A stretch of DNA of 64,000 nucleotides, taken from UHGV virus genome UHGV-0351052, one strand, 5' to 3'. The number at the start of each line of letters is the position of its first letter. Within the stretch, counting starts at the first letter, position 1. This stretch comes from a virus. The notes below the pieces were generated by a model. The model saw only the letters and a program-made list of their open reading frames with translations. It was not told the DNA's origin and did not search any database. Shown here one piece after another: positions 4,133 to 63,161 of the stretch. Made by a program: the position numbers and the translations under genes.

Positions 4133-4161
4133 AAATAAAAAAGGGGACCTCTAGGGTCCCC
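4131..4161 (-). terminator. intrinsic terminator hairpin downstream of gene 32
   Basis: GGGGACC-TCTA-GGGTCCCC stem-loop followed by a T-run on the minus strand. Confidence 0.5.
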
Positions 4162-4183
4162 AATTAATTAGTAATATAATCTA

Positions 4184-5092
4184 TTAAAGGTCATTCAAAA
4201 GGTCATCCAGGTCCGTGTCATCAGCACTAGATGAACTGCCAGAGCTTGAGCTCATAAAATCATCTTCAGTTTTTGTTTTGAAGTCATCAACATTGAATGC
4301 ATCCAAATCATCAGCAACTTTATCAGCTTTCTTAGCAGCAGTCGCTGCGGCACCACCCATAGCAGCAGTTCCCATAACTTGACTGAACTTAGTGCTCAGT
4401 TCTTCAAATGATTTGAATTTATCTTTAGAAGTCATTTCAGAAAGGTCAACCATTTGTTCGAACAGTTCTTTCTGGAAAGATTCATCATCAATGTTTGGAA
4501 TCGCAGATTGATTCAGGAATTTAGATTCATCGTAGTTACTAAATCCAGAAACCTGTTTAACTTTCAGTACAAAGTTAGCACCTTCCCACGGACAAGTTAC
4601 ATCAACCGGAGTTTCACCCATTTCAACATCAACTGCAATCATTGCATTGATTTTATCCCAGATTTTCTTACCGAAACGATATTTAAATACTTTACCTTCG
4701 TTTTCTGGAGCAGCTGGGTCTTTTACTACAAGAATGTTAGCCCAATAAGAAGTTTTACGTTTAACAAGACTGTACTCTTTATTGTCAGTGTTGTACAGAT
4801 CATTTTTACTGATGTACTGACATACTGGACAAGAATCGTAATCACCGTGGGTAGATGAACAGTTTTCAATATACCATTTACCATTTTTCTTGAAGCCGTG
4901 ATTTACAAGAATTGCGAATGGTGCTTGTTCATCATTTTTAGACGGAAGAAAACGAATTACTGCTTGACCGTTACCCGCATTATCGAGTTTCAGTTTCCAC
5001 TCGCCTTTATCTTCAGAAGAAAAACCACCTTTATTTCCAGCCAGTTTAGCCATTTGTGCAGCGAGTTCAGCAGTAGATTTACGTTTAAACAT
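4184..5092 (-). CDS. 32: single-stranded DNA-binding protein gp32 (302 aa)
   Basis: Near-identical to remembered T4 gp32 ([50 protein letters not shown]...), acidic C-terminal tail. Confidence 0.95.
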
Positions 5093-6450: not shown

Positions 6451-7368
6451 TCAAAATTCATTAATGCTATTAGTTAATTTAGAAAGACCCGCTTTTACAA
6501 AATATGAATAAATTTTGCCACGCGGTGGTAATTTATATGAATTATAGTAATTCACAATGTTTGAAGCAATATTATCAGGAATATAATCAAAATCAATTAG
6601 AACTAAATTTTCTTTATAACGATTATATTCAGATTCAGTGAGAAGCACCTTAGCTTGCTCACGGTCATTAGCAATAGCTTCAACGATTGAAGTTTTCATT
6701 GAAGGAGTTCGTTCACCTTCAACTCTGGTAAACCAAAAGTCAGATCGTACTTTAACTGAAGCAACGTTATCCTTTTTGTCGCCTTTAAGGATTTTAGTCA
6801 TACAGTCAATTTCAGCAGAACCGCTTTTAATTTTAACCCATTTCTTGTGCATCGGTGACCATTGCTTAACATTTGGGTATTTGTGAAGCTGTGTAAAGTC
6901 ACCATCCGACGAAATGATTAAAATTTTATGTCCTTCTAAAGAGAACTTTTTAACAAGAACAGCAATGTGGTCATCTGCTTCATACTTATCAATATCCATA
7001 ACAATGTATGGCATATAAGCTTTCAATTCATCTATAACTTTATGACTGGATTCAAAATAACCTTCCCAGTCCCAAGTAGATTCTTCTCGTGCTTTTCCGC
7101 GGTTTTTCTTGTAATAGTAAGCAAAATCACGACGCCAATATCCAGATTTCGCGTTATCAATACACAGCACAATTTTAGTGTATCCAAGCGTTTTTGCTTT
7201 TTTGACATTAAACTTAATTGAGTTCAATATCAAATGACGAACCATTGATAAATTAATTTTTTCTTTATCTGGGAAGTTTACTAAAGCAGTTGAAAGCGCG
7301 ATTTGACTAAAGTCAATTAAGCAGATTCCTTCTTTGTAATCTTCATCCAACATCATTTCTAAATCCAT
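6451..7368 (-). CDS. rnh: RNase H / 5'-3' exonuclease (305 aa; start at ATG 7368 MDLEMMLDEDYKEG...)
   Basis: FEN-family protein matching T4 Rnh; ORF-track start is an upstream TTG. Confidence 0.85.
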   Translation of the reverse strand: MDLEMMLDEDYKEGICLIDFSQIALSTALVNFPDKEKINLSMVRHLILNSIKFNVKKAKTLGYTKIVLCIDNAKSGYWRRDFAYYYKKNRGKAREESTWDWEGYFESSHKVIDELKAYMPYIVMDIDKYEADDHIAVLVKKFSLEGHKILIISSDGDFTQLHKYPNVKQWSPMHKKWVKIKSGSAEIDCMTKILKGDKKDNVASVKVRSDFWFTRVEGERTPSMKTSIVEAIANDREQAKVLLTESEYNRYKENLVLIDFDYIPDNIASNIVNYYNSYKLPPRGKIYSYFVKAGLSKLTNSINEF

Positions 7369-7428
7369 ATGAACCTCGTTCAATTAGTGAGATTTCTATT
7401 ATACCATCCAAATCTTAAAGTAAATAAG

Positions 7429-7436
7429 TATAAATA
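7429..7436 (+). promoter_or_regulatory. late promoter TATAAATA for gene 34
   Basis: Exact TATAAATA 35 nt upstream of the gene 34 ATG. Confidence 0.5.
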
Positions 7437-7470
7437 CTTATTATTGAAAACACAATAGGAGCCCGGGAGA

Positions 7471-10400
7471 ATGGCCGAGATTAAAAGAAAGTTCAGAGCA
7501 GAAGATGGTCTGGACGCAGGTGGTGATAAAATAATCAACGTAGCTTTAGCTGATCGTACCGTAGGAACTGACGGTGTTAACGTTGATTACTTAATTCAAG
7601 AAAACACAGTTCAACAATATGATCCAACTCGTGGATATTTAAAAGATTTTGTAATCATTTATAATAATCGTTTTTGGGCAGCAACGGATGATATTCCAAA
7701 ACCTGCTGGAAATTTTAATAGAATTCGTTGGAAAGCATTACGTACTGATGCTGTATATACAACCGTATCATCTGGACCATATCAATTAAAATCCGGAGAA
7801 GCAATTTCAGTAGATACATCAGTTGGCAATGACATTGAGTTTAATTTACCACCTTCTCCTCTTGATGGAGAAACCGTAATAATTCAAGATATTGGTGGAA
7901 AACCTGGTATAAATCAGGTTAAAATAAATTCTTCAAATCAGAGTATTGTTAATTTTAGAGGTGAACAGGTACGTTCAGTTCTAATGACTCATCCAAAGTC
8001 ACAAATGATATTCATTTTTAATAATCGTTTGTGGCAAATGTATGTTGCTGATTATAGCAGAGAAGCTGCGATTGTTACTCCATCGACTGCATATCAAGCA
8101 CAATCTAATGATTTTATCGTGCGTAGATTTACTTCTGCTTCAGCAATTAATATTAAACTTCCAAGATTTGCTAATCATGGCGATATTATTAATTTCGTTG
8201 ATTTGGATAAATTAAATCCTCTTTATCACACAATTGTTACTACATATGATGAAACAACTTCAGTACAAGAAGTTGGAACTCATTCCATTGAAGGTCGTAC
8301 ATCGATTGACGGTTTCTTGATGTTTGATGATAATGAGAAATTGTGGAGATTGTTTGACGGGGATAGTAAAGCACGTTTACGCATTATAACAACTAATTCT
8401 AATATTCGTCCAAATGAAGAAGTCATGGTGTTTGGTGCGAATAATGGAGCAACCCAAACAATTGAACTTCAGCTTCCGACTGATATTTCTGTTGGTGATA
8501 CTGTTAAAATTTCTATGAATTACATGAGAAAAGGACAAACAGTTAAAATCAAAGCTGCAGGTGAAGATAAAATTGCTTCCTCAGTTCAATTGCTGCAATT
8601 CCCAAAACGTTCAGAATATCCACCTGAAGCTGAGTGGGTTACAGTTCAAGAATTAGTTTTTAACGGTGAAACTAATTATGTTCCAGTTTTGGAGCTTGCT
8701 TATATAGAAGATTCTGATGGAAAATATTGGGTTGTACAGCAAAACGTTCCAACCGTAGAAAGAGTAGATTCTTTAAATGATTCTACTAGAGCAAGATTAG
8801 GCGTAATTGCTTTAGCTACACAAGCTCAAGCTAACGTCGATTTAGAAAATTCTCCACAAAAAGAATTAGCAATTACTCCAGAAACATTAGCTAACCGTAC
8901 TGCTACAGAAACTCGTAGAGGTATCGCAAGAATAGCAACTACTGCTCAAGTAAATCAGAACACTACATTCTCTTTTGCTGATGACCTTATCATCACTCCT
9001 AAAAAACTGAATGAAAGAACTGCCACAGAAACTCGTAGAGGCGTTGCTGAAATTGCCACACAGCAAGAAACTAACGCAGGTACTGATGATACTGCAATCA
9101 TCACTCCTAAAAAGCTTCAAGCTCGACAAGGTTCTGAATCATTATCGGGTATTGTAACCTTTGTATCTACCGCAGGAGCTACTCCAGCTTCTAGTCGTGA
9201 ATTAAATGGTACAAACGTTTATAATAAAAACACTAATAATTTAGTTGTTTCGCCTAAAGCTCTGGATCAGTATAAAGCTACTCCAACACAACAAGGTGCA
9301 GTAATTTTAGCAGTTGAAAGTGAAGTAATTGCTGGGCAAAGCCAAGAAGGATGGGCAAATGCGGTTGTAACGCCAGAAACGTTACATAAAAAGACATCAA
9401 CTGATGGAAGAATTGGTTTAATTGAAATTGCTACGCAAAGTGAAGTTAATACAGGAACTGATTACACTCGTGCAGTCACTCCGAAAACTTTAAATGACCG
9501 TATAGCAACTGAAAGTTTAAGTGGTATAGCTGAAATTGCTACACAAGTTGAATTCGACGCAGGCGTCGACGATACTCGTATCTCTACACCATTAAAAATT
9601 AAAACCAGATTTAATAGTACTGATCGTACTTCTGTTGTTGCTCTATCTGGATTAGTTGAATCAGGAACTCTCTGGGACCATTATACCCTTAATATTCTTG
9701 AAGCAAACGAGGCACAACGTGGTACACTTCGTGTAGCTACACAAGTTGAAGCTGCTGCAGGAACATTAGATAATGTTTTGATAACTCCTAAAAAGCTTTT
9801 AGGTACTAAATCTACTGAAGCACAAGAAGGTGTTATTAAAGTTGCAACTCAGTCTGAAACTGTGACTGGAACGTCAGCAAATACTGCTGTATCTCCAAAA
9901 AATTTAAAATGGATTGTGCAGAGTGAACCTACTTGGGCAGCAACTACTCTGATAAGAGGGTTTGTTAAAACTTCATCTGGTTCAATTACATTCGTTGGTA
10001 ATGATACCGTTGGTTCAACGCAGTCATTAGAATTATACGAGAAAAATGGTTATGCAGTATCACCATATGAATTAAATCGCGTATTAGCAAATTATTTGCC
10101 ATTAAAAGCAAAAGCTGTAGATAGTAATTTATTAGATGGTCTAGATTCGCTCCAGTTCATTCGTAGGGACATTGCACAAACAGTTAATGGTTCACTAACC
10201 TTAACCCAACAAACGAATCTGAGTGCCCCTCTTGTATCATCTAGTACTGCTACATTCGGTGGATCAGTTTCAGCAAATAGTACATTAACTATTTCTAATA
10301 CTGGAACGGCAACTCGTCTGATTTTTGAGAAAGGACCTCAAACTGGAACAAACCCGGCTCAAACGATGACTGTCAGAGTGTGGGGAAATCAATTTAGTGG

Positions 10401-24036: not shown

Positions 24037-24589
24037 TGGAAAGATACCATCCGTTGTAGTTGCTTTTTCTTACAACCTTACGAAGGTCTTCTCTGTCACC
24101 GATGAACTTCGGAGTGTACTGGATGACACCTGGATGAATTTCTTTAGTGTTGAATATAATTATACAGTCAGCGACCTGATGATTCAGAATGGGTCCTAGA
24201 TTTATTCCAGAACCATATGGATACTCTCCGCTGCATCCTGTTGTTACAGAAATCCAACGTGAGTCAGTTTGATGTGTCTTAACTTCTACACGAAGCCCGC
24301 AGTATTTTGGATGTGCTAAAACATCCCATGCATACGTGTACGGATCATCGACATCTTCTTGACCTTTGTTAACATAGCCGCTCAACCAATCTGCTACAAA
24401 AAACTCTGCGTACACCGCGATACGGCATCTTTCGATAACTTCTGCTTTATCCTGGTTCGGGTTTTGTTTTAAAGAGTATCTTGCTGTATCAGCAATTTTG
24501 ACCTTCATTTCACTAGTTAAGTCACTGTTCGATAGGGTAAATGTCGGAATCTGAAATAGTCTCTGTAAACCCGGATTCGTTTTCTGCAT
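24032..24589 (-). CDS. denB: endonuclease IV DenB (185 aa)
   Basis: Size and sequence match T4 DenB; AAGGAAAG ribosome site. Confidence 0.85.
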   Translation of the reverse strand: MQKTNPGLQRLFQIPTFTLSNSDLTSEMKVKIADTARYSLKQNPNQDKAEVIERCRIAVYAEFFVADWLSGYVNKGQEDVDDPYTYAWDVLAHPKYCGLRVEVKTHQTDSRWISVTTGCSGEYPYGSGINLGPILNHQVADCIIIFNTKEIHPGVIQYTPKFIGDREDLRKVVRKSNYNGWYLSI

Positions 24590-24851
24590 TTAAACTTTCC
24601 TTTTTACCGCTGAGATAGGCGTTATATACTTTAAGAGTGCCATAATAAATTCGATCATTTTCATCTAAAGAATTACGATCAAGTTCATCGAGATTCTTTT
24701 TGTCCATGACTATAACATCATTGCAGTAAAGAACTCCAAGTTTTTCATGCCCAAATTCGAATTTATTGCAGTACACAATATTAGCATAATGATTACCATG
24801 TAGAGAAATTTCTTTAATTCCGGGATCACCAACATTCATAAAGTGAATCAT
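24522..24851 (-). CDS. hypothetical protein (109 aa)
   Basis: ORF track; 3' end overlaps denB start by 68 nt in another frame. Confidence 0.4.
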   Translation of the reverse strand: MIHFMNVGDPGIKEISLHGNHYANIVYCNKFEFGHEKLGVLYCNDVIVMDKKNLDELDRNSLDENDRIYYGTLKVYNAYLSGKKESLNAENESGFTETISDSDIYPIEQ

Positions 24852-24868
24852 AATTTCCTCTTAAAACA

Positions 24869-24886
24869 AAAGGGCCGAAGCCCTTA
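24869..24886 (-). terminator. hairpin with UUCG tetraloop (AAGGGC-CGAA-GCCCTT on plus)
   Basis: Minus-strand RNA forms a GC stem with UUCG loop followed by a T-rich tract. Confidence 0.4.
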
Positions 24887-24887
24887 T

Positions 24888-25082
24888 TTATTTAAATTGT
24901 GCAATTCTTTTCTCTAAACAGTCAGCATAAGATTTCATTGAGATGAACTGTGAAAGTAGCAGTTCTTGCTCAACTGCACTAACCGTTAGAAACTTTGCGC
25001 TTTCTAAAAATTTGCTCAGTGCATTAATTTTGAGCATTAATTGATCGTATTCTTCTTTTACTCGTGCTTGATAACCTAACAT
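24888..25082 (-). CDS. hypothetical protein (64 aa)
   Basis: ORF track; immediately downstream of rIIB. Confidence 0.4.
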   Translation of the reverse strand: MLGYQARVKEEYDQLMLKINALSKFLESAKFLTVSAVEQELLLSQFISMKSYADCLEKRIAQFK

Positions 25083-25110
25083 AATTTTCCTTAGTTAAGG
25101 GTCGAAGCCC

Positions 25111-26049
25111 TTATTTAAATTGTTCAGTAACGTCTTCAACTACTTCGTATTGGCAGGTACGCATTTTAGCATCGTTGTAATCAATCGGAATTGATACTAC
25201 ATCGCGAGGATGTACTTTAACTTTTACAACTCGACTAGTTGAACTGCCAAAGTGACGAATATAAGATTTAGAACACACATGCAGACCATGAGAACAAGTT
25301 TGTGTATCATCGTCATTCACACGAGTACGTGGCATTTTAACTACTTTACCCGGACTGTTATCAAAGGTGTTTGAGTGACAGTCAAAGTAGTTGTCACGAA
25401 CTACTTTCCAAGCATAGAAGTAACCATCTTCTGTAATTTCAATATCATTTGCTACCAAGAAATCAAAGAGTCGAGATACCGCTTTTTGGCTTGGGTTTTC
25501 CAACAGATTTTCCAAGAACGGAAAATAAAATTCAAAGTTTTCGCCTTTTTCCATCGAGTCAAGAATACGATCAACCAAACCAGACCGCAATTCAATATTT
25601 TGATAGAACAAGCTTCCACCTTCAATTCGAACATCGCCGGAAATATATTTTTCAACAGCGCGACGAACATTAATTTTTTGCGCAGCTTCTTCCAGCTTAT
25701 CCGCTACAAGCAGATTAAGAATTTCCTGGAAGTTTGAATGAGTATTAGGAGTTGCGTTATAAGTTACACCGTCAACAGTAATTGAAATGAATTTTTTAGA
25801 AGCATTCCAAATAATATCAGATTTAGCAACTGGAGCAATAGCTACATCGCTATTAACTTTAACTGTAATATCACCGCTAATAGTAACTTTAGGATGTTTA
25901 GCTTCTTCAGCATTTTTCAAAACACGACGGATTGTGTCAACCGATACACCTTGCCAATCAGCCAATTCCTGCTGGGTGTAATTACCACTTGAATACAGTT
26001 TAACAATTTCAGCTTGTTCGTTTTTGGTCAGGCATTTAATATTGTACAT
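25111..26049 (-). CDS. rIIB: rIIB membrane-associated protein (312 aa)
   Basis: Length equals T4 rIIB; position next to rIIA. Confidence 0.9.
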   Translation of the reverse strand: MYNIKCLTKNEQAEIVKLYSSGNYTQQELADWQGVSVDTIRRVLKNAEEAKHPKVTISGDITVKVNSDVAIAPVAKSDIIWNASKKFISITVDGVTYNATPNTHSNFQEILNLLVADKLEEAAQKINVRRAVEKYISGDVRIEGGSLFYQNIELRSGLVDRILDSMEKGENFEFYFPFLENLLENPSQKAVSRLFDFLVANDIEITEDGYFYAWKVVRDNYFDCHSNTFDNSPGKVVKMPRTRVNDDDTQTCSHGLHVCSKSYIRHFGSSTSRVVKVKVHPRDVVSIPIDYNDAKMRTCQYEVVEDVTEQFK

Positions 26050-29039: not shown

Positions 29040-29838
29040 TATACACCTCATAGAACTTTTCATCAGGAATCCAACCGCGTTTAAATTCATTAAATGCTCG
29101 GCCGAATAATTTTGAATTCACAGTTATATTATTAACTGATTTCCATTTAGCAACTCCCGTTCGTTTATAATGATCGGGGTCATATTTCGTGACGTACCAT
29201 TCATATAAATTTGGTATTAATTTTACAGCCTCTGGATTTGTCGCTGATTTATTATACCATGGTTTCGCTTTTTCAAGTTCAGCTGCTTTTGCAGTAGCAG
29301 CAACAGTATTTCCAATACCAACTAATTTTTCAGCTTTAATGCGTGGATCATTAACATGAAGACGAAAAACTTCGCCTTTTTCATTTTTAAAGCATGTCAT
29401 GCCTTTAATTCCAGGAAGCTTAACACCTTTATTAACACCGCACCATTCCTTTGGGTTAAATGATCCTTTAATTAATAAGGCGCATTTACCCGATTTAATA
29501 CTTCTCATTAAAACTTTATCTTTCATAAAGTTTTTTGACCATTCAGATACTGCTCTTTGATGGTAAATTCTAGCAATTTCATATAATTTACTAGAACGTA
29601 AATATTTTTCAGTGTTTAACATTCTATTCATCGCATATGCCATTTCACGATTACGATGAATTTTATATAGTAGAAAATGTGCTAAAAAGTGTTCACGAAA
29701 AGTCAGTTTCACCAAATTTTCTTTATCATCAGAACCTCCCATTGATCTTGGAAGGATATGATGAATTTCACCCTTAAATTTAGAAACGCGGGTTTTACCC
29801 CGCACTATTAAGTCATTATAGATTTTTTCGTAATTCAC
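29020..29838 (-). CDS. mobA: HNH homing endonuclease MobA (272 aa)
   Basis: HNH motif EIHHILPRSMGGSDDKENLVKLTFREHFLAH; located between 39 and 60 as in T4. Confidence 0.8.
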   Translation of the reverse strand: MNYEKIYNDLIVRGKTRVSKFKGEIHHILPRSMGGSDDKENLVKLTFREHFLAHFLLYKIHRNREMAYAMNRMLNTEKYLRSSKLYEIARIYHQRAVSEWSKNFMKDKVLMRSIKSGKCALLIKGSFNPKEWCGVNKGVKLPGIKGMTCFKNEKGEVFRLHVNDPRIKAEKLVGIGNTVAATAKAAELEKAKPWYNKSATNPEAVKLIPNLYEWYVTKYDPDHYKRTGVAKWKSVNNITVNSKLFGRAFNEFKRGWIPDEKFYEVYNEICKN

Positions 29839-41932: not shown

Positions 41933-42129
41933 TTTGAATGCTCTATAATTAATTTTAAGGCTTTTTCACTGACAAAAATTTCATCAGGACCTTCTTCTAT
42001 AACCCAATCAACTGTACGAAGCTGATTAGATAGGAGCTCGTATGTGAGCTCCTTGTCATAATTTTTAAATAGCTGGTCAATACGTTTCTTGTGGGCTTTC
42101 TTAAGTTGACGTTTATTTAAACGAGCCAT
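41929..42129 (-). CDS. hypothetical protein (66 aa)
   Basis: ORF track; occupies the soc-56 interval where T4 has segF. Confidence 0.4.
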   Translation of the reverse strand: MARLNKRQLKKAHKKRIDQLFKNYDKELTYELLSNQLRTVDWVIEEGPDEIFVSEKALKLIIEHSK

Positions 42130-42647
42130 TAATAACCTCGGTCTTGACGAGCGAAGTTTTCAGCATTTTTCAGATAATAAAGTTTAAAGATTTCTTCTGC
42201 TGTAAGACCAAGACCTTGAAACATGTTCAGAACAAAATGGAGAATATCAATCATTTCGAATTTGATTTCTAACTGGTCCTGTGGAGACAAATCAGTAATC
42301 AGAGTTTCACGACGTTCACCATGCTGAGCTTTCCACGGCTTCCATACAGCAGATGCATCTTTTTCGCCATTGCTCATACCACCAAGAGAAGTCAGAAGTT
42401 CGCGGAATTCATCATCAATATAATCTTTCTGATTACGCAGCCAATCAACAACTTCACCTGCGGTAGCCAAATCATCAGGATGACGATTATATTCAGGTTT
42501 ATCTTTAGCTAAACGAATCTGCAGAGATTTCTGCATGTCAAGCATTACCTGTAGCGGGTCTTTTTCATCACCGAGAATATCCCAATATTCATTTTGAGCT
42601 TTATCAGCGCCTTCGATCAGTTGACTACATTCGTTAAAGTAAGCCAT
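42129..42647 (-). CDS. 56: dCTPase/dUTPase gp56 (172 aa; start at ATG 42647)
   Basis: MazG-like pyrophosphatase matching T4 gp56. Confidence 0.85.
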   Translation of the reverse strand: MAYFNECSQLIEGADKAQNEYWDILGDEKDPLQVMLDMQKSLQIRLAKDKPEYNRHPDDLATAGEVVDWLRNQKDYIDDEFRELLTSLGGMSNGEKDASAVWKPWKAQHGERRETLITDLSPQDQLEIKFEMIDILHFVLNMFQGLGLTAEEIFKLYYLKNAENFARQDRGY

Positions 42648-42707: not shown

Positions 42708-43496
<789 letters not shown>

Positions 43497-43568
43497 TCAT
43501 TTATTGCAGCAAAAAACGAATTATACAATTCTTCATCATATGTATTTGATAATACTAACACGTTTTGC

Positions 43569-43576
43569 GATAAATA
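43569..43576 (+). promoter_or_regulatory. late-promoter-like GATAAATA
   Basis: 7/8 match to TATAAATA 20 nt upstream of the plus-strand ORF at 43596. Confidence 0.3.
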
Positions 43577-47907: not shown

Positions 47908-48270
47908 TTAAAAGAATTTAAATTTTTTCTTTGACCTTTTATTAAATGCATCTTGCAGTTGCATTGTAATACATTTTTCTACATGAGGAGCTAACTCAGC
48001 TTTTCTTTCTTGGTCAAGAACAGCAAAGTCCATTACAACCTTTCCATCAACCCAATCCAGTTTAGTTACATACACTATATGTGTAGAACCATCTTCTAGT
48101 TTAATGACAATCTCCTGGATAACATTTTCCATAGCGGATTTAATTATCTTAAGAGACTCATTAAAAAGACGTTCTTTTCTTTCTTCTTCCCCCTCCGAAG
48201 AGGGGGATTCATCGATAATTTCTAGATCTAAATCTAAATCATCTTTACTCATTAAATTCTTCCATATCAC
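47908..48270 (-). CDS. 40: gp40 head assembly protein (about 120 aa; start uncertain)
   Basis: Position between uvsX and 41. Confidence 0.6.
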   Translation of the reverse strand: MIWKNLMSKDDLDLDLEIIDESPSSEGEEERKERLFNESLKIIKSAMENVIQEIVIKLEDGSTHIVYVTKLDWVDGKVVMDFAVLDQERKAELAPHVEKCITMQLQDAFNKRSKKKFKFF

Positions 48271-49426
48271 TTAACTGCTCGAGGTCAGTTTCTAAATCAG
48301 CAGCTGATTTACTTTTACTTTCTGGAGATTTAAATTTTTCAACCTTTGAGTTAATCAATTCATCAACTTCAGCTTCAACAATTTCATTACTATCAATAGC
48401 ACCTAACTGATAAGCGCGTTTAATAGCATCTCGGAATGGTTGATGCTTAAATAAAGGACCCCAGAATGTAGTGCAGTTGGTATCTTTTGCACGCCAAGAT
48501 TTTTCTTCGCGAATCATCTCGCCAGTTTCTTCGTCAAGAAATTCACGAGCATACCAGCCATTTTTAGGTTTTACTACAAATCCTAATTCTAGAGCCATAT
48601 CTAACAATCCAGAATAAGGATCGATACCACCGTCAAATTTAACATCAATAAAGAATTTACTTTTTTCTTTAACGGTACGAGATTTTTCTACATTTAGAAC
48701 AAATTGATACCCCTGAAGATCAGAACCATCTTTAATCTGACGCTTACCGATAATGAATACGGTATCAGCCGAATACATTACGCCTGTACCACCTGTCATC
48801 ACGGTTTTACTAAACATTTCAATTGTTTCAATTGTATGGTTAACCGCAACACATGGAATATTTTTAATGCTAAAATAAGGAGTAACAATACGGAATAATG
48901 ACTTCAGTGATTTAGCACGAGTCATATCTGCCACAGATTTTTCATTCAAGGCATCTTCCGTTTCTTTCTTAGAAGCCATATTACCGATTGAGTCGATGAA
49001 TACAATAACCTTTTCACCACGCTCAATAGCTTCAAGCTGGTTCACCATATCAATTTTCAGCTGTTCAACTGACTGAATTGGCGTATGAATTACTCGTTCC
49101 GGGTCAACTCCCATGGATCGCAAATAAGCTGGAGTAATACCAAATTCGCTATCATAGAATAGACAAACCGCGTCAGGATATTTGTTCAAATATGCCGCAA
49201 CCATAGTCAAAGACATATTTGATTTAAAGTGTTTAGAAGGCCCTGCGAAAATAGTTAAACCAGACTGCATACCGCCATCAATCGCACCAGAAATAGCGAT
49301 ATTAAGCATTGGAATTTTTGTACGAATTACATCCTTTTCATTAAAGAATTTAGATGTAGTCAGTTCAGCAGTCATTTTAGAAGTGGAAGCTTTAATCAAA
49401 CGGGATTTTAAATCTGCAATAGACAT
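48245..49426 (-). CDS. uvsX: recombinase UvsX (393 aa)
   Basis: RecA-fold Walker A GPSKHFKS; matches T4 UvsX. Confidence 0.9.
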   Translation of the reverse strand: MSIADLKSRLIKASTSKMTAELTTSKFFNEKDVIRTKIPMLNIAISGAIDGGMQSGLTIFAGPSKHFKSNMSLTMVAAYLNKYPDAVCLFYDSEFGITPAYLRSMGVDPERVIHTPIQSVEQLKIDMVNQLEAIERGEKVIVFIDSIGNMASKKETEDALNEKSVADMTRAKSLKSLFRIVTPYFSIKNIPCVAVNHTIETIEMFSKTVMTGGTGVMYSADTVFIIGKRQIKDGSDLQGYQFVLNVEKSRTVKEKSKFFIDVKFDGGIDPYSGLLDMALELGFVVKPKNGWYAREFLDEETGEMIREEKSWRAKDTNCTTFWGPLFKHQPFRDAIKRAYQLGAIDSNEIVEAEVDELINSKVEKFKSPESKSKSAADLETDLEQLSDMEEFNE

Positions 49427-49503
49427 TCATTTTTTCCATAGGCATCATTATATTTTCCTCACTGGTTAAAGATAGAGTAATTATAACACAATAAATTTAG
49501 GCA

Positions 49504-50352
49504 TTAATCAACTGCTATTGGATGAATAGCATTAAACTTATGAAATGCTTCTGATTTTTCTTTACGCGAAACACACATGCGAAGAACCTTTAATGGCTCG
49601 TCTTCTTCACCCAACGATTTTCGTTTTTCAATATTCGATGTTTTCCAACGAGCTTGCTCTGGAAACTCTCTATTGATTTGCTCAAGCGCTCTATTATGTT
49701 TAGAATTACTACGAATTGAACTACACCCACCGGGAGCGTGTGATTTTCCAGATACAACTAGATATTTGAACAAGGCCAAATGCGGATAACCTTGATTAAT
49801 TAAATTGAGAAATGCATACATATCTTCGCATAAATCAATTTTTCCATACCCAATTTGTTCTGTCGTAAGTTTTCCGAGGTCATACCATGTATTCGTGAAT
49901 CCATATGAGTTTTCACGATAATTACCCCAAGATGAAGTAATTTTAAAAATTGGTAGACGAGCATGACCGTGATAATACCCGCAATCCATGGCATCCTCAA
50001 CGTATTGAATCAATTCATAGAACTGTTCACGAGTTAATTGATTAATTTTATCTACGCGCCGTTTATCGTCTCTCTTTCGTATTGAACTCATACGAATAGT
50101 AGTATCATCATCAATCATCCAGATTCGTTGACCTGCATACATATCAGTAATTGCTTTACGAGTACCGGCAATTCCGTTTACATCATCAGGAATAGTTACA
50201 ATTTTAGCTCTAGACCCATAAGCATCATAATAAGCTTTTTCTTCGTGTTCACGCACTACAATATGGGGCTCATAATCAGTCGGAAACATATTAAGGGCAG
50301 AAACTGCCCCTACACGCTGATAACTTGGAATTACGAATTGAATCATTTCCAC
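49504..50352 (-). CDS. putative GT-A type glycosyltransferase (282 aa) at the beta-gt locus
   Basis: Lies between uvsX and 42, where T4 encodes beta-gt (351 aa); carries a DXD-type motif (RIWMIDDDTTI) and is unlike T4 beta-gt. Confidence 0.5.
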   Translation of the reverse strand: MEMIQFVIPSYQRVGAVSALNMFPTDYEPHIVVREHEEKAYYDAYGSRAKIVTIPDDVNGIAGTRKAITDMYAGQRIWMIDDDTTIRMSSIRKRDDKRRVDKINQLTREQFYELIQYVEDAMDCGYYHGHARLPIFKITSSWGNYRENSYGFTNTWYDLGKLTTEQIGYGKIDLCEDMYAFLNLINQGYPHLALFKYLVVSGKSHAPGGCSSIRSNSKHNRALEQINREFPEQARWKTSNIEKRKSLGEEDEPLKVLRMCVSRKEKSEAFHKFNAIHPIAVD

Positions 50353-51083
50353 TCACCGTTATAATCTTTTTTCACAATATGAGTTTCGCCAGTATTCCAC
50401 CAATGATCAACCAAGTAAAAATGACGAGAATATACATGAAGACTTCCAACATTCCATATAATAGAACCTGCTTTATACTGACGAGTTGAATCGCCTGCAT
50501 TCAAATCAGATACTAATTTATCTAATACGTATTTTTGCCATGCATAATCATTACGGAATCCGAAGACCACGTCATTTGAGCGCATGTTAACAACCGCATT
50601 GACTTTCTTATCACGAATCAGGTACTGTACTGTATTAGTACACATGAAATCTGACATACCATCTTTATTGTAGTCAAATTGCATGGATGGACGAGTATAA
50701 ATCATGATACCACGTCGAGAATCAGGATTTTGACCAAGTTCAGCTAAACACATATCATACTGAGCATAGTTATCTTCTGACCAGATAGCCCAACCATAAT
50801 TCGAGTTAATTTCGCCTTTAGAAGATGCTACTTGTTGCCAAATCTTTGGTGTTTCACCCGGAATATCTTTAACGAACAAGCTTTTAGATTTATACCATTC
50901 AAGTTCACGCTGAATGTATTCATCATTAAGAGCGCCAAAAATAAACGGTTCATCTGCTACAAATGATGCGCCAATAATTTCAATAGTTTTAACACCAGTT
51001 TTATCAACTACGAAATCTTTTTCTTTTAATGCAAGCCCCAAATGAAGACGGATTTCTTCAACTGTCATAGAGTCACTAATCAT
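50343..51083 (-). CDS. 42: dCMP hydroxymethylase gp42 (246 aa)
   Basis: Thymidylate-synthase-like fold; length equals T4 gp42. Confidence 0.9.
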   Translation of the reverse strand: MISDSMTVEEIRLHLGLALKEKDFVVDKTGVKTIEIIGASFVADEPFIFGALNDEYIQRELEWYKSKSLFVKDIPGETPKIWQQVASSKGEINSNYGWAIWSEDNYAQYDMCLAELGQNPDSRRGIMIYTRPSMQFDYNKDGMSDFMCTNTVQYLIRDKKVNAVVNMRSNDVVFGFRNDYAWQKYVLDKLVSDLNAGDSTRQYKAGSIIWNVGSLHVYSRHFYLVDHWWNTGETHIVKKDYNGEWK

Positions 51084-51090
51084 TTAAACC

Positions 51091-51240
51091 TCAATTGATA
51101 CATTCATATTTAACTTGTAACAGTAATAAACCCCAACCTAAAATAATAGTTGGAATCATAAGAGGAACCGTTACACTATAGTATATACTTATTATAATCA
51201 TCAAGATTAAAAGCAATGCTGCTATAATTTTGCTTTTCAT
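51091..51240 (-). CDS. small membrane protein (49 aa), below ORF-track cutoff
   Basis: Manual read: MKSKIIAALLLILMIIISIYYSVTVPLMIPTIILGWGLLLLQVKYECIN; ATGA overlap with imm stop. Confidence 0.35.
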   Translation of the reverse strand: MKSKIIAALLLILMIIISIYYSVTVPLMIPTIILGWGLLLLQVKYECIN

Positions 51241-51488
51241 TCCTTTTCTCTGATGATAATTACCTGATTTGGCTGTGCAGACTTTTTAGTTTCACCCGCA
51301 ATTGACCAAATAAATGTAATAAACCAACCAATAATTGACCAGTTAAACAGTAAAGATGTGAAAAAGATTCCTACTGTCGATTTTGACCCACGCATCAAGG
51401 CAATAAACCATGGAAGCATGTATATAATAATAGCCAACACACCTGAAACTAAAACCATAAAAATTGAACCTGCTACTAAAGTTTCCAT
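51237..51488 (-). CDS. imm: superinfection immunity protein Imm (83 aa)
   Basis: Two transmembrane segments; matches T4 Imm. Confidence 0.85.
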   Translation of the reverse strand: METLVAGSIFMVLVSGVLAIIIYMLPWFIALMRGSKSTVGIFFTSLLFNWSIIGWFITFIWSIAGETKKSAQPNQVIIIREKE

Positions 51489-51495
51489 GTTTTCC

Positions 51496-51876
51496 TCACT
51501 TAGTCAAATTTTTTACACATGAATTATAAGAATTCACTACATACTCCATCGGAGCATTTTTACCTGTACGCCATTGGTAATTATTAGCCCAATTTGCCCA
51601 AAGTTCAGCGCAGTAGTTTTCAATTTTTTCTTCGCGTGTAATTACATCAGAATTACGATATGCTTGAGCAGATTCATCTGGACGAATAGCCTCGTCAAAA
51701 TTCGCCTGCATTTGTTCTACTGTCTGTTTTGGAGCTTCTTTATAACACTTGACATTAGGATTATAAAACTTGCTTGAACAGTTTACAATTTTTCCTACAT
51801 CAGACTGATTTACTACCGGTCCTTGAGCCACACAACCAGTAAGACCTAATGCAATAACCAAAATAGCGATTTTCAT
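51496..51876 (-). CDS. putative lipoprotein (126 aa)
   Basis: Signal peptide with lipobox LTGC (MKIAILVIALGLTGCVAQG...). Confidence 0.5.
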   Translation of the reverse strand: MKIAILVIALGLTGCVAQGPVVNQSDVGKIVNCSSKFYNPNVKCYKEAPKQTVEQMQANFDEAIRPDESAQAYRNSDVITREEKIENYCAELWANWANNYQWRTGKNAPMEYVVNSYNSCVKNLTK

Positions 51877-55081: not shown

Positions 55082-55303
55082 TTAAATTAGTACTATTTGC
55101 CGGGTGAAAATTGTCAATCCATCTGCATTAATTGACTTAACGACTGCTGTAAAATGTTTTTGTTCTGGATGAACTAGTTTTTGAAATTCTACCTGAAATT
55201 TTAGTTGGAGGTTTTCTGGTAAATCAAAAAGTGTTTCTGTTGCAGAAAGATTATATTTTTCTTTAAGAGACACCATGTATTCTTGCGGGGTTATAGCAGT
55301 CAT
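55082..55303 (-). CDS. hypothetical protein (73 aa) between regA and gene 43
   Basis: ATG at 55303 overlaps regA stop (TAATATG); encodes MTAITPQEYMVSLKEKYNLSATETLFDLPENLQLKFQVEFQKLVHPEQKHFTAVVKSINADGLTIFTRQIVLI. Confidence 0.45.
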   Translation of the reverse strand: MTAITPQEYMVSLKEKYNLSATETLFDLPENLQLKFQVEFQKLVHPEQKHFTAVVKSINADGLTIFTRQIVLI

Positions 55304-55304
55304 A

Positions 55305-55673
55305 TTAATTACCAATCGTATATTTAGGAACGAGTTTCCATTCATGTTTTTGTTTAAAAGAAATAACTCGGAAGTTATTAGTTAAATCTTTCATAAAAGT
55401 TCTTTGACCAGGGACGATTTCAATCAGTCCCCAATCTTCTAACAACCATGCAATCGAATCACGACGAACTTCATCTTCTTCTGTCATTTCAACTTGACGA
55501 CCATCCATACGAAGCATTTCTTTAAAATGGACGATATAGTATAGTCCTTTTTTCTGAAGAATATGACAGGACTGATACAGAACTTTATCTTTATTATTAG
55601 CAATTCCCATACGAGTCAAAGTTTCTTTTACTTTCAGAAAATCTTCAGGTTTTTTAAGAGTAATTTCAATCAT
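55305..55673 (-). CDS. regA: translational repressor RegA (122 aa)
   Basis: Length and sequence match T4 RegA. Confidence 0.9.
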   Translation of the reverse strand: MIEITLKKPEDFLKVKETLTRMGIANNKDKVLYQSCHILQKKGLYYIVHFKEMLRMDGRQVEMTEEDEVRRDSIAWLLEDWGLIEIVPGQRTFMKDLTNNFRVISFKQKHEWKLVPKYTIGN

Positions 55674-61942: not shown

Positions 61943-61960
61943 AAAGGGCCGAAGCCCTTT
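61943..61960 (-). terminator. hairpin AAAGGGC-CGAA-GCCCTTT immediately after a-gt
   Basis: Same UUCG-loop hairpin family; overlaps the a-gt stop codon. Confidence 0.45.
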
Positions 61961-63161
61961 ATTTTGTAATAATGTCAAACTGTTCTTTAAAGCAGAAGCT
62001 TGAATCTTGATGCTGATACAAAAATTCATATGCTTTTTCTCGCTCACGGTCATAAAGAGCTCGGTCAGATGACAATTCTTTAATACGTTCAAATGTTGAT
62101 TCCATGTCATTTTCATCAAACCAAATGATACCACTATCATGTGAGGTCAAAGGAGTATTATCAACACGGAATTTTAAATTATCACCCGTTGATTTCCAGA
62201 AAACAGGAATTGTTCCACATGCACCAAGCTCGAGATGAGTATATTCGAGTGAGCGTTGTAAGTATTTTTGGTTAAGTTTACTCAACTGATATCCAAAGCC
62301 AGATTTACTCATTCGTTCAAGCATTTCACTATTAATATAACAATCTAGGATTTGTGCCGGTTGATTCGGCGTGAGATTCATTTTATCAATCTCACGATTA
62401 CCATAATATTCATACGGAATACCTTTTTCCTTAATTGCAATAAAAGCAGGGGAACGTTCAAGACCTTCCATTACAGTGGATTTACCAGCAGGTTTTAAGA
62501 ATTTTTCGTGAAAATCAAACATCTGATAAAAACCTTTCCATGTAGTCGTACGACCAATCCAACGGTTGATGTTCATGTTAATTTCAGAAACATCTTTCCA
62601 ATAAGTTGACCGAACCTTCACAATATCCATAGGAGGCTGAAAATTATATACTGTTGGTGCTTCTTCAATATCATCAAACAGAGAAACAGTTTCTGGATAC
62701 CATTCTTTCATCAGAACTTTATTAAAATCACCATTATCAGAATGGCTAAAAATAACGTCAGCTCGACGAACAGTTTCTTCTAATCCCAAATTTCGACGCA
62801 AAGAAAGAACAGAATGATCATGCTGATAAACTACAACACGAATAGAAGGTTTAATATTATCTAAAAGTTTTTTATAGTTATTAATCGTGGCTTCTTGAAC
62901 GGAAGTAGCAGGAACAGAATTAATAATTAGAATATCACAATCATTTACCAGCTTAAGTGCTTTATCGTATTCTTTAGCTAAAATAACTGGAATTGAAAAT
63001 GATTTGTGGTCATGAGAACTTGTACGAGTAAATGATTTATCTTTAGCATAAACCAAAGTTACTTCATGACCATTTTTAATAAACCAATCACGCTGCTCAA
63101 GAGAAAATTTAGTTACACCGCAACCTTCAAGACCCCGAGCCAGAAAAATGCATACTTTCAT
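61959..63161 (-). CDS. a-gt: DNA alpha-glucosyltransferase (400 aa)
   Basis: Length and sequence match remembered T4 alpha-gt (GT-B fold). Confidence 0.85.
   Translation of the reverse strand: MKVCIFLARGLEGCGVTKFSLEQRDWFIKNGHEVTLVYAKDKSFTRTSSHDHKSFSIPVILAKEYDKALKLVNDCDILIINSVPATSVQEATINNYKKLLDNIKPSIRVVVYQHDHSVLSLRRNLGLEETVRRADVIFSHSDNGDFNKVLMKEWYPETVSLFDDIEEAPTVYNFQPPMDIVKVRSTYWKDVSEINMNINRWIGRTTTWKGFYQMFDFHEKFLKPAGKSTVMEGLERSPAFIAIKEKGIPYEYYGNREIDKMNLTPNQPAQILDCYINSEMLERMSKSGFGYQLSKLNQKYLQRSLEYTHLELGACGTIPVFWKSTGDNLKFRVDNTPLTSHDSGIIWFDENDMESTFERIKELSSDRALYDREREKAYEFLYQHQDSSFCFKEQFDIITK

Follow-up and report, generated by a model that had tools for sequence, protein, structure and literature searches.

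Identification of the transferase gene

The window, the whole 64-kb stretch of viral DNA analysed here, carries on its minus strand (positions 49504 to 50346) a gene that very probably encodes a T2/T6-type beta-glucosyl-HMC-alpha-glucosyltransferase (ba-GT, also g-gt; Pfam TAGT), an inverting GT-A enzyme making gentiobiosyl-5hmC. This assignment is based on orthology, on membership of the family with all of its invariant residues kept, on a fold resembling GT-A, and on the finding of genes for the earlier pathway steps in the window. The predicted activity draws on published work on deletion of the T6 gene, and the expected DNA chemistry on nucleoside analysis of phages whose enzyme is one residue away.

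The protein matched Pfam PF20691 (TAGT, TET-associated glycosyltransferase) with an E value of 5.4e-10 and a score of 40 bits, against a gathering cut-off of 27.5, over profile positions 2-205 of 205. It also matched PHROG 842 (phrog_842), described as 'beta-glucosyl-HMC-alpha-glucosyltransferase', at 5.9e-88. Alignment with the T2 (AP018813) and T6 (AP018814) proteins encoded at the equivalent locus, a check that the first-pass annotation had proposed, gave 96% identity over the full 280 amino acids. Pfam Glycos_transf_2 gave no match at E <=1, and no sequence similarity to T4 beta-gt was detected (BLASTP E = 4.1). The family matches and this last result bear out the earlier proposal of a glycosyltransferase unrelated to T4 beta-gt.

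The gene is named ggt in GenBank records MH550421 (T6) and MH751506 (T2), and cloning of the T2 and T6 ba-GT genes is credited to Winkler and Ruger (1993; NAR 21:1500; cited in PMC11946311). We also came across a misnomer in the records for RB55 (KM607002) and RB59 (KM607003), in which a gene 100% identical to T4 beta-gt (24364-25419) is labelled 'beta-glucosyl-HMC-alpha-glucosyl-transferase'; this label could spread via annotation.

Reading frame and gene locus

The open reading frame at 49504 to 50352 on the minus strand is real, extending for 282 amino acids from a GTG without a stop codon or frameshift. The ATG at 50346, located two codons downstream of the GTG at 50352, is nevertheless likely to be the start codon and would give a protein of 280 amino acids followed by a TAA stop. 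We prefer this ATG because of its overlap with the gene 42 TGA (aaATGAtt), its agreement with the 280-aa annotation of T2 and of the Durham phages EL, CP, TB37, and Geo, among others, and the MIQFVIPSY that it yields, with which all of the homologues open. The overlap between the stop codon of gene 42 and the start codon of ba-gt suggests translational coupling. The reading frame with WMIDDDTTI that had been noted between uvsX and gene 42 is thus confirmed, with its start moved by two codons. The genes of the locus and of the associated pathway are as follows.

48245 to 49426, minus strand: uvsX, downstream flank of ba-gt; 90.5% identity to T4 UvsX
49504 to 50346, minus strand: ba-gt (g-gt) coding sequence, probable beta-glucosyl-HMC-alpha-glucosyltransferase of the TAGT family, identified by reading frame, Pfam, PHROG, and identity to T2/T6
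50343 to 51083, minus strand: gene 42, dCMP hydroxymethylase; 97.6% identity to T4 gp42
61959 to 63161, minus strand: a-gt, alpha-glucosyltransferase, at the position previously given for it; 99% identity to T4 alpha-gt and to EL alpha-gt
42129 to 42647, minus strand: gene 56, dCTPase/dUTPase; 72% identity to its EL counterpart, for which the annotation is dCTP pyrophosphatase

Neither a T4-type beta-gt (best tblastn E = 0.15) nor segA (best tblastn E = 1.4) was found in the 64-kb window, and the interval between uvsX and the transferase gene, unlike that of T4, is free of segA. A scan of positions 49000 to 51600 for promoters and terminators returned counts equal to the shuffle expectation.

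Several other features of the window were apparent. Gene 56 (42129-42647) represents a divergent allele, and the region around it is mosaic: it is 72% identical to its EL counterpart, compared with 96-99% for neighbouring genes. A very hydrophobic 49-aa reading frame (51091-51240, minus strand) spans precisely the interval from gene 42 to imm and has a start that overlaps the imm stop; it is kept in T4, T2, and T6, where it is unannotated in the records examined, and is labelled 'Phage protein' in EL, CP, TB37, Geo, Some, and Solly. The gap between regA and gene 43 is expanded to approximately 300 bp, versus 78 bp in T4, by an extra 87-aa reading frame (55082-55345, minus strand; approximately 73 amino acids if started at an internal Met). 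Of the 401-bp stretch containing this reading frame, at least 80% was matched in 178 of 503 records from related phages; the reading frame is absent from T4, T2, and T6. Finally, a segment at 29518-29838 (minus strand) shows 42% identity over 113 amino acids to the T4 HNH homing endonuclease MobB and may be a homing endonuclease gene or fragment, at a site that differs from that of T4 mobB.

Conserved residues and structure model

In a profile search against 1.84 billion representative proteins, 2159 matched at E <=1e-3 and 742 at E <=1e-10. Residue conservation was scored on an alignment of 116 diverse members with identities of 17-64% to the window protein. Five residues (R11, D80, D175, G186, and G207) were invariant among the 116 members and eight others (I6, P7, R63, D79, D81, L180, G206, and R212) nearly so; the window protein has every one of them. 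The conserved motifs, in the numbering of the 280-aa protein, are located as follows.

50314 to 50334, minus strand: VIPSYQR, residues 5-11 at the NH2-terminus, after strand 1; R11 (codon 50314 to 50316) in 116 of 116 members, I6 in 112, and P7 in 110
50095 to 50121, minus strand: WMIDDDTTI, residues 76-84
50104 to 50112, minus strand: codons of the DXD-type triplet D79-D80-D81; D80 invariant, D79 and D81 each in 114 of 116 members
49822 to 49827, minus strand: E174-D175, the 'ED' that opens the predicted helix 174-184; D175 in 116 of 116 members, E174 in 90

Inverting GT-A enzymes have a DXD site for metal and UDP as well as a catalytic base. On this analogy, D79-D81 would be the putative site for a divalent metal and the UDP diphosphate, and D175 a candidate catalytic base. 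By analogy with GT2 enzymes, VIPSYQR, including R11, may contribute to binding of the nucleotide sugar. The triplet directly follows a predicted beta-strand (residues 74-77) and so lies at the end of the fourth strand, as in GT-A enzymes.

A sequence search of the PDB revealed no relative at E <=1, and the fold assignment therefore rests on a structure model. This model is of moderate quality, with a mean pLDDT of 70 and values below 50 for residues 127-151 and 191-210. It is predicted to form a single alpha/beta/alpha nucleotide-binding domain, and its fold matches are GT-A enzymes, in agreement with the fold that had been proposed from the DXD-type motif.

Proposed pathway

Genes for the steps upstream of the transferase (a-gt, gene 42, and gene 56) are all present within the window. 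In the proposed pathway, gp42 would make the 5hmC precursor and the gp56 dCTPase would exclude unmodified C, so that 5hmC becomes the sole form of cytosine in phage DNA. The alpha-GT would then attach alpha-linked glucose to part of the 5hmC bases, creating the acceptor for ba-GT. With UDP-glucose as donor, ba-GT would extend this first glucose by another in beta-1,6 linkage and thereby generate gentiobiosyl-5hmC.

The activity of the classical T2/T6 enzyme has been summarised (PMC13216743, PMC13160076). DNA of T6 delta-ba-gt is reported to have lost the second glucose and to carry only alpha-glucosyl-5hmC; sensitivity to Brig1 is increased (PMC11078745), and the DNA becomes a substrate for the deglucosylase BapA (PMC13160076). 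The suggestion in the first-pass annotation that the protein adds a second glucose is supported by orthology with the T2/T6 enzymes, by the presence of alpha-gt, and, by analogy, by the gentiobiosyl-hmC measured in EL, Geo, and BGP (PMC13390438).

Alternative interpretations

Given that the gene occupies the position of beta-gt, its product might instead be a member of the TAGT family that uses unglucosylated 5hmC directly as its acceptor and functionally substitutes for T4 beta-GT. Many phages possess a solitary TAGT without an alpha- or beta-GT (PMC13216743), and some family members must therefore use other acceptors. We consider direct action on 5hmC very improbable here, however, with phages whose protein is one residue away containing no beta-glucosyl-5hmC and retaining 20-33% naked 5hmC (PMC13390438), with T6 delta-ba-gt DNA reported to contain alpha-glucosyl-5hmC only, and with an identity of 96% to the T2/T6 enzymes. 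A similarly slight probability attaches to an intact gene with a weak or inactive product, which would leave the DNA essentially monoglucosylated as in T2 (approximately 5% gentiobiosyl). The T2 protein is 96% identical to that of the window and yet little gentiobiosyl-hmC is found in T2; in addition, two T6 database records carry lesions in ba-gt, indicating that loss of the gene is tolerated in laboratory stocks. Against this reading, the window protein keeps R11, which is H11 in T2, together with all of the other invariant residues, making an inactive product unlikely; its reading frame contains no stop codon or frameshift; and the nearest allele, that of EL, Geo, and BGP, goes with approximately 40% gentiobiosyl-hmC.

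That the protein is not a glycosyltransferase at all, with the DDD run being a chance motif in an unrelated protein, has next to no probability. A DXD-like tripeptide is short and common, and NCBIfam has no model matching ba-GT, nor one matching alpha-gt. The full-length Pfam and PHROG matches, the GT-A fold matches, and the conservation of DDD across 116 members with identities of 17-64% nevertheless refute this idea.

Alleles and expected DNA composition

The closest enzymes are those of EL, Geo, and BGP (vB_Eco_EL etc. of the Durham collection; OZ034682, OZ034685, and OZ035849), which share 279 of 280 residues with the window protein, the sole change being D19N. Synteny in these phages matches that of the window, including dam and the small reading frame between gene 42 and imm; the window dam is 99% identical to those of EL and T2. 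A restriction-enzyme-like gene beside dam in EL, Geo, and BGP, which the Durham authors described as specific to these three phages (PMC13390438), is missing from the window. A 28-aa remnant at 43490-43570 (minus strand) of the window is 96% identical to the COOH-terminus of this 186-aa 'restriction enzyme-like' gene.

In the Durham study, nucleosides were measured in ten Tequatrovirus phages with alpha-GT and TAGT (PMC13390438). Virion DNA of EL, Geo, and BGP contained 5hmC, alpha-glucosyl-5hmC, and gentiobiosyl-5hmC in a ratio of approximately 1:2:2, whereas that of the other seven phages comprised approximately one-third 5hmC and two-thirds gentiobiosyl-5hmC, plus no more than traces of monoglucosyl-5hmC; beta-glucosyl-5hmC was absent from all ten (PMC13390438). 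We compared the ba-GT of seven Durham phages, T2, and T6, a set that included four of the seven members of Durham group iv and was without QOTSP, NR1, and EH2. A seven-residue allele (V50, I89, K95, R97, I101, S202, and H203) was shared by the window, EL, Geo, and BGP, and the alternative allele (I50, M89, R95, C97, V101, A202, and Q203) by CP, TB37, Some, Solly, T6, and T2. The allele parts the 1:2:2 phages (EL, Geo, and BGP) from the mostly gentiobiosyl phages (CP, TB37, Some, Solly, and T6), although this association is a correlation over few phages, three against five, and is confounded by their relatedness.

Given that the window carries the EL/Geo/BGP allele, our best guess for its virion DNA is approximately 20% 5hmC, 40% alpha-glucosyl-5hmC, and 40% gentiobiosyl-5hmC, with zero beta-glucosyl-5hmC. 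This quantitative prediction is weak, as the extent of diglucosylation varies widely among near-identical enzymes, with gentiobiosyl contents of 5% in T2, approximately 40% in EL, and approximately 70-72% in T6. It is possible, but doubtful, that the seven-residue EL-type allele itself causes the intermediate pattern (approximately 40% alpha-monoglucosylated) and that the T6-type allele drives near-complete conversion. If so, natural allelic variation in one enzyme would tune both the mix of modifications and exposure to defences that recognise the sugar. The window phage, with the EL-type allele and dam and without the restriction-enzyme-like gene of the EL group, would serve as a useful natural test.

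Sequence differences in T2 and T6 records

Residue 11 of ba-GT is H in three independent T2 records (AP018813, piece 7283-8125; MH751506, 2286-3128; LC348380, 2295-3137), whereas all 116 diverse members have R there, as do the other T-even proteins examined. H11, in place of this family-invariant R, is a candidate explanation for the low gentiobiosyl-5hmC content of T2 DNA (approximately 5%, versus approximately 72% for T6). Exact-pattern scans of IMG/VR for the H11 codon gave zero H-type and three R-type matches, too few for an estimate of frequency.

The two T6 records differ from each other. AP018814 (piece 7135-7974) has a 3-bp deletion in GATGATGAT that converts DDD to DD. MH550421 (piece 4138-4983) keeps DDD but has an amber codon at position 10 (CAG to TAG) and is annotated from a downstream start, giving 261 amino acids. 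Laboratory T6 stocks may not all make classical DNA. We also considered DD versus DDD as a marker of high versus low gentiobiosyl content and rejected it, given that DDD is present in the second T6 record and in the four high-gentiobiosyl Durham phages examined. Together with the allele-pattern association, the T2 H11 observation is a mildly new by-product of this analysis.

Distribution and relatedness

Megablast detected the gene in 479 phage records (475 at full length) with hosts in Escherichia, Shigella, Yersinia, Salmonella, and Citrobacter; in many RefSeq records it is named beta-glucosyl-HMC-alpha-glucosyltransferase. T4-type beta-gt was present in 29 phage records, mostly those of T4 and its laboratory derivatives. 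The earlier statement that the gene replaces T4 beta-gt therefore holds relative to T4 but not in general: ba-gt at this position is the norm for Tequatrovirus, from which T4 deviates. Among 753 phage genomes with such transferases, alpha-GT and beta-GT were combined in only six, with the combination of alpha-GT and TAGT being common (PMC13216743).

Identity of the window over 25 kb was 97.2% with phage HP3 and approximately 96.5% with EL; the latter value indicates that the window represents a phage different from EL. No record in the collection was >=99% identical to the window over 25 kb. By sequence, the window phage is a typical Tequatrovirus.

Biological significance

The predicted DNA would contain three forms together, namely naked 5hmC, alpha-glucosyl-5hmC, and gentiobiosyl-5hmC, without beta-glucosyl-5hmC. 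Such DNA would be partially protected from the alpha-glucosyl-specific glycosylase Brig1, and its diglucosylated sites would resist deglucosylation by BapA, but its unglucosylated 5hmC would still be exposed to enzymes specific for 5hmC, of which Brig3 is an example. Such DNA should also be sensitive to enzymes of the GmrSD type. The consequences for defence that had been anticipated for this locus are documented for T6 and T6 delta-ba-gt with regard to Brig1 (PMC11078745) and BapA/Brig3 (PMC13160076). The ba-gt gene itself is already known, being part of textbook T-even biology and of a common Tequatrovirus genotype, and publications already cover the enzyme as well as its fold class and distribution. 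The assignment is thus of use for phage annotation and for the choice of phages for therapy, and contains nothing new in principle.

Comparison with known enzymes

The ba-GT of the window resembles those of T2 and T6 in its location between uvsX and gene 42, its overlap with gene 42, its length of 280 amino acids, its DDD and ED motifs, and its alpha-gt partner. It differs from them by 10-12 substitutions: residue 11 is R in the window and T6 and H in T2, and the T6-specific residues N40, G55, and H106 are missing from the window protein. TarP (6h1j) and TarS (5tze) of S. aureus, GT-A enzymes of the GT2 family, show 7-15% identity to ba-GT, whose acceptor is a sugar on DNA and not teichoic acid or a lipid-linked glycan. 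T4 beta-gt (PF09198) occupies the same genomic position, where it is adjoined by segA, but shares neither sequence nor fold with ba-GT, having a GT-B fold rather than the GT-A-like fold predicted here. Both T4 beta-gt and ba-GT depend on UDP-glucose and attach glucose to modified phage DNA through a beta linkage, with the acceptor being 5hmC for T4 beta-gt and alpha-glucosyl-5hmC for ba-GT.
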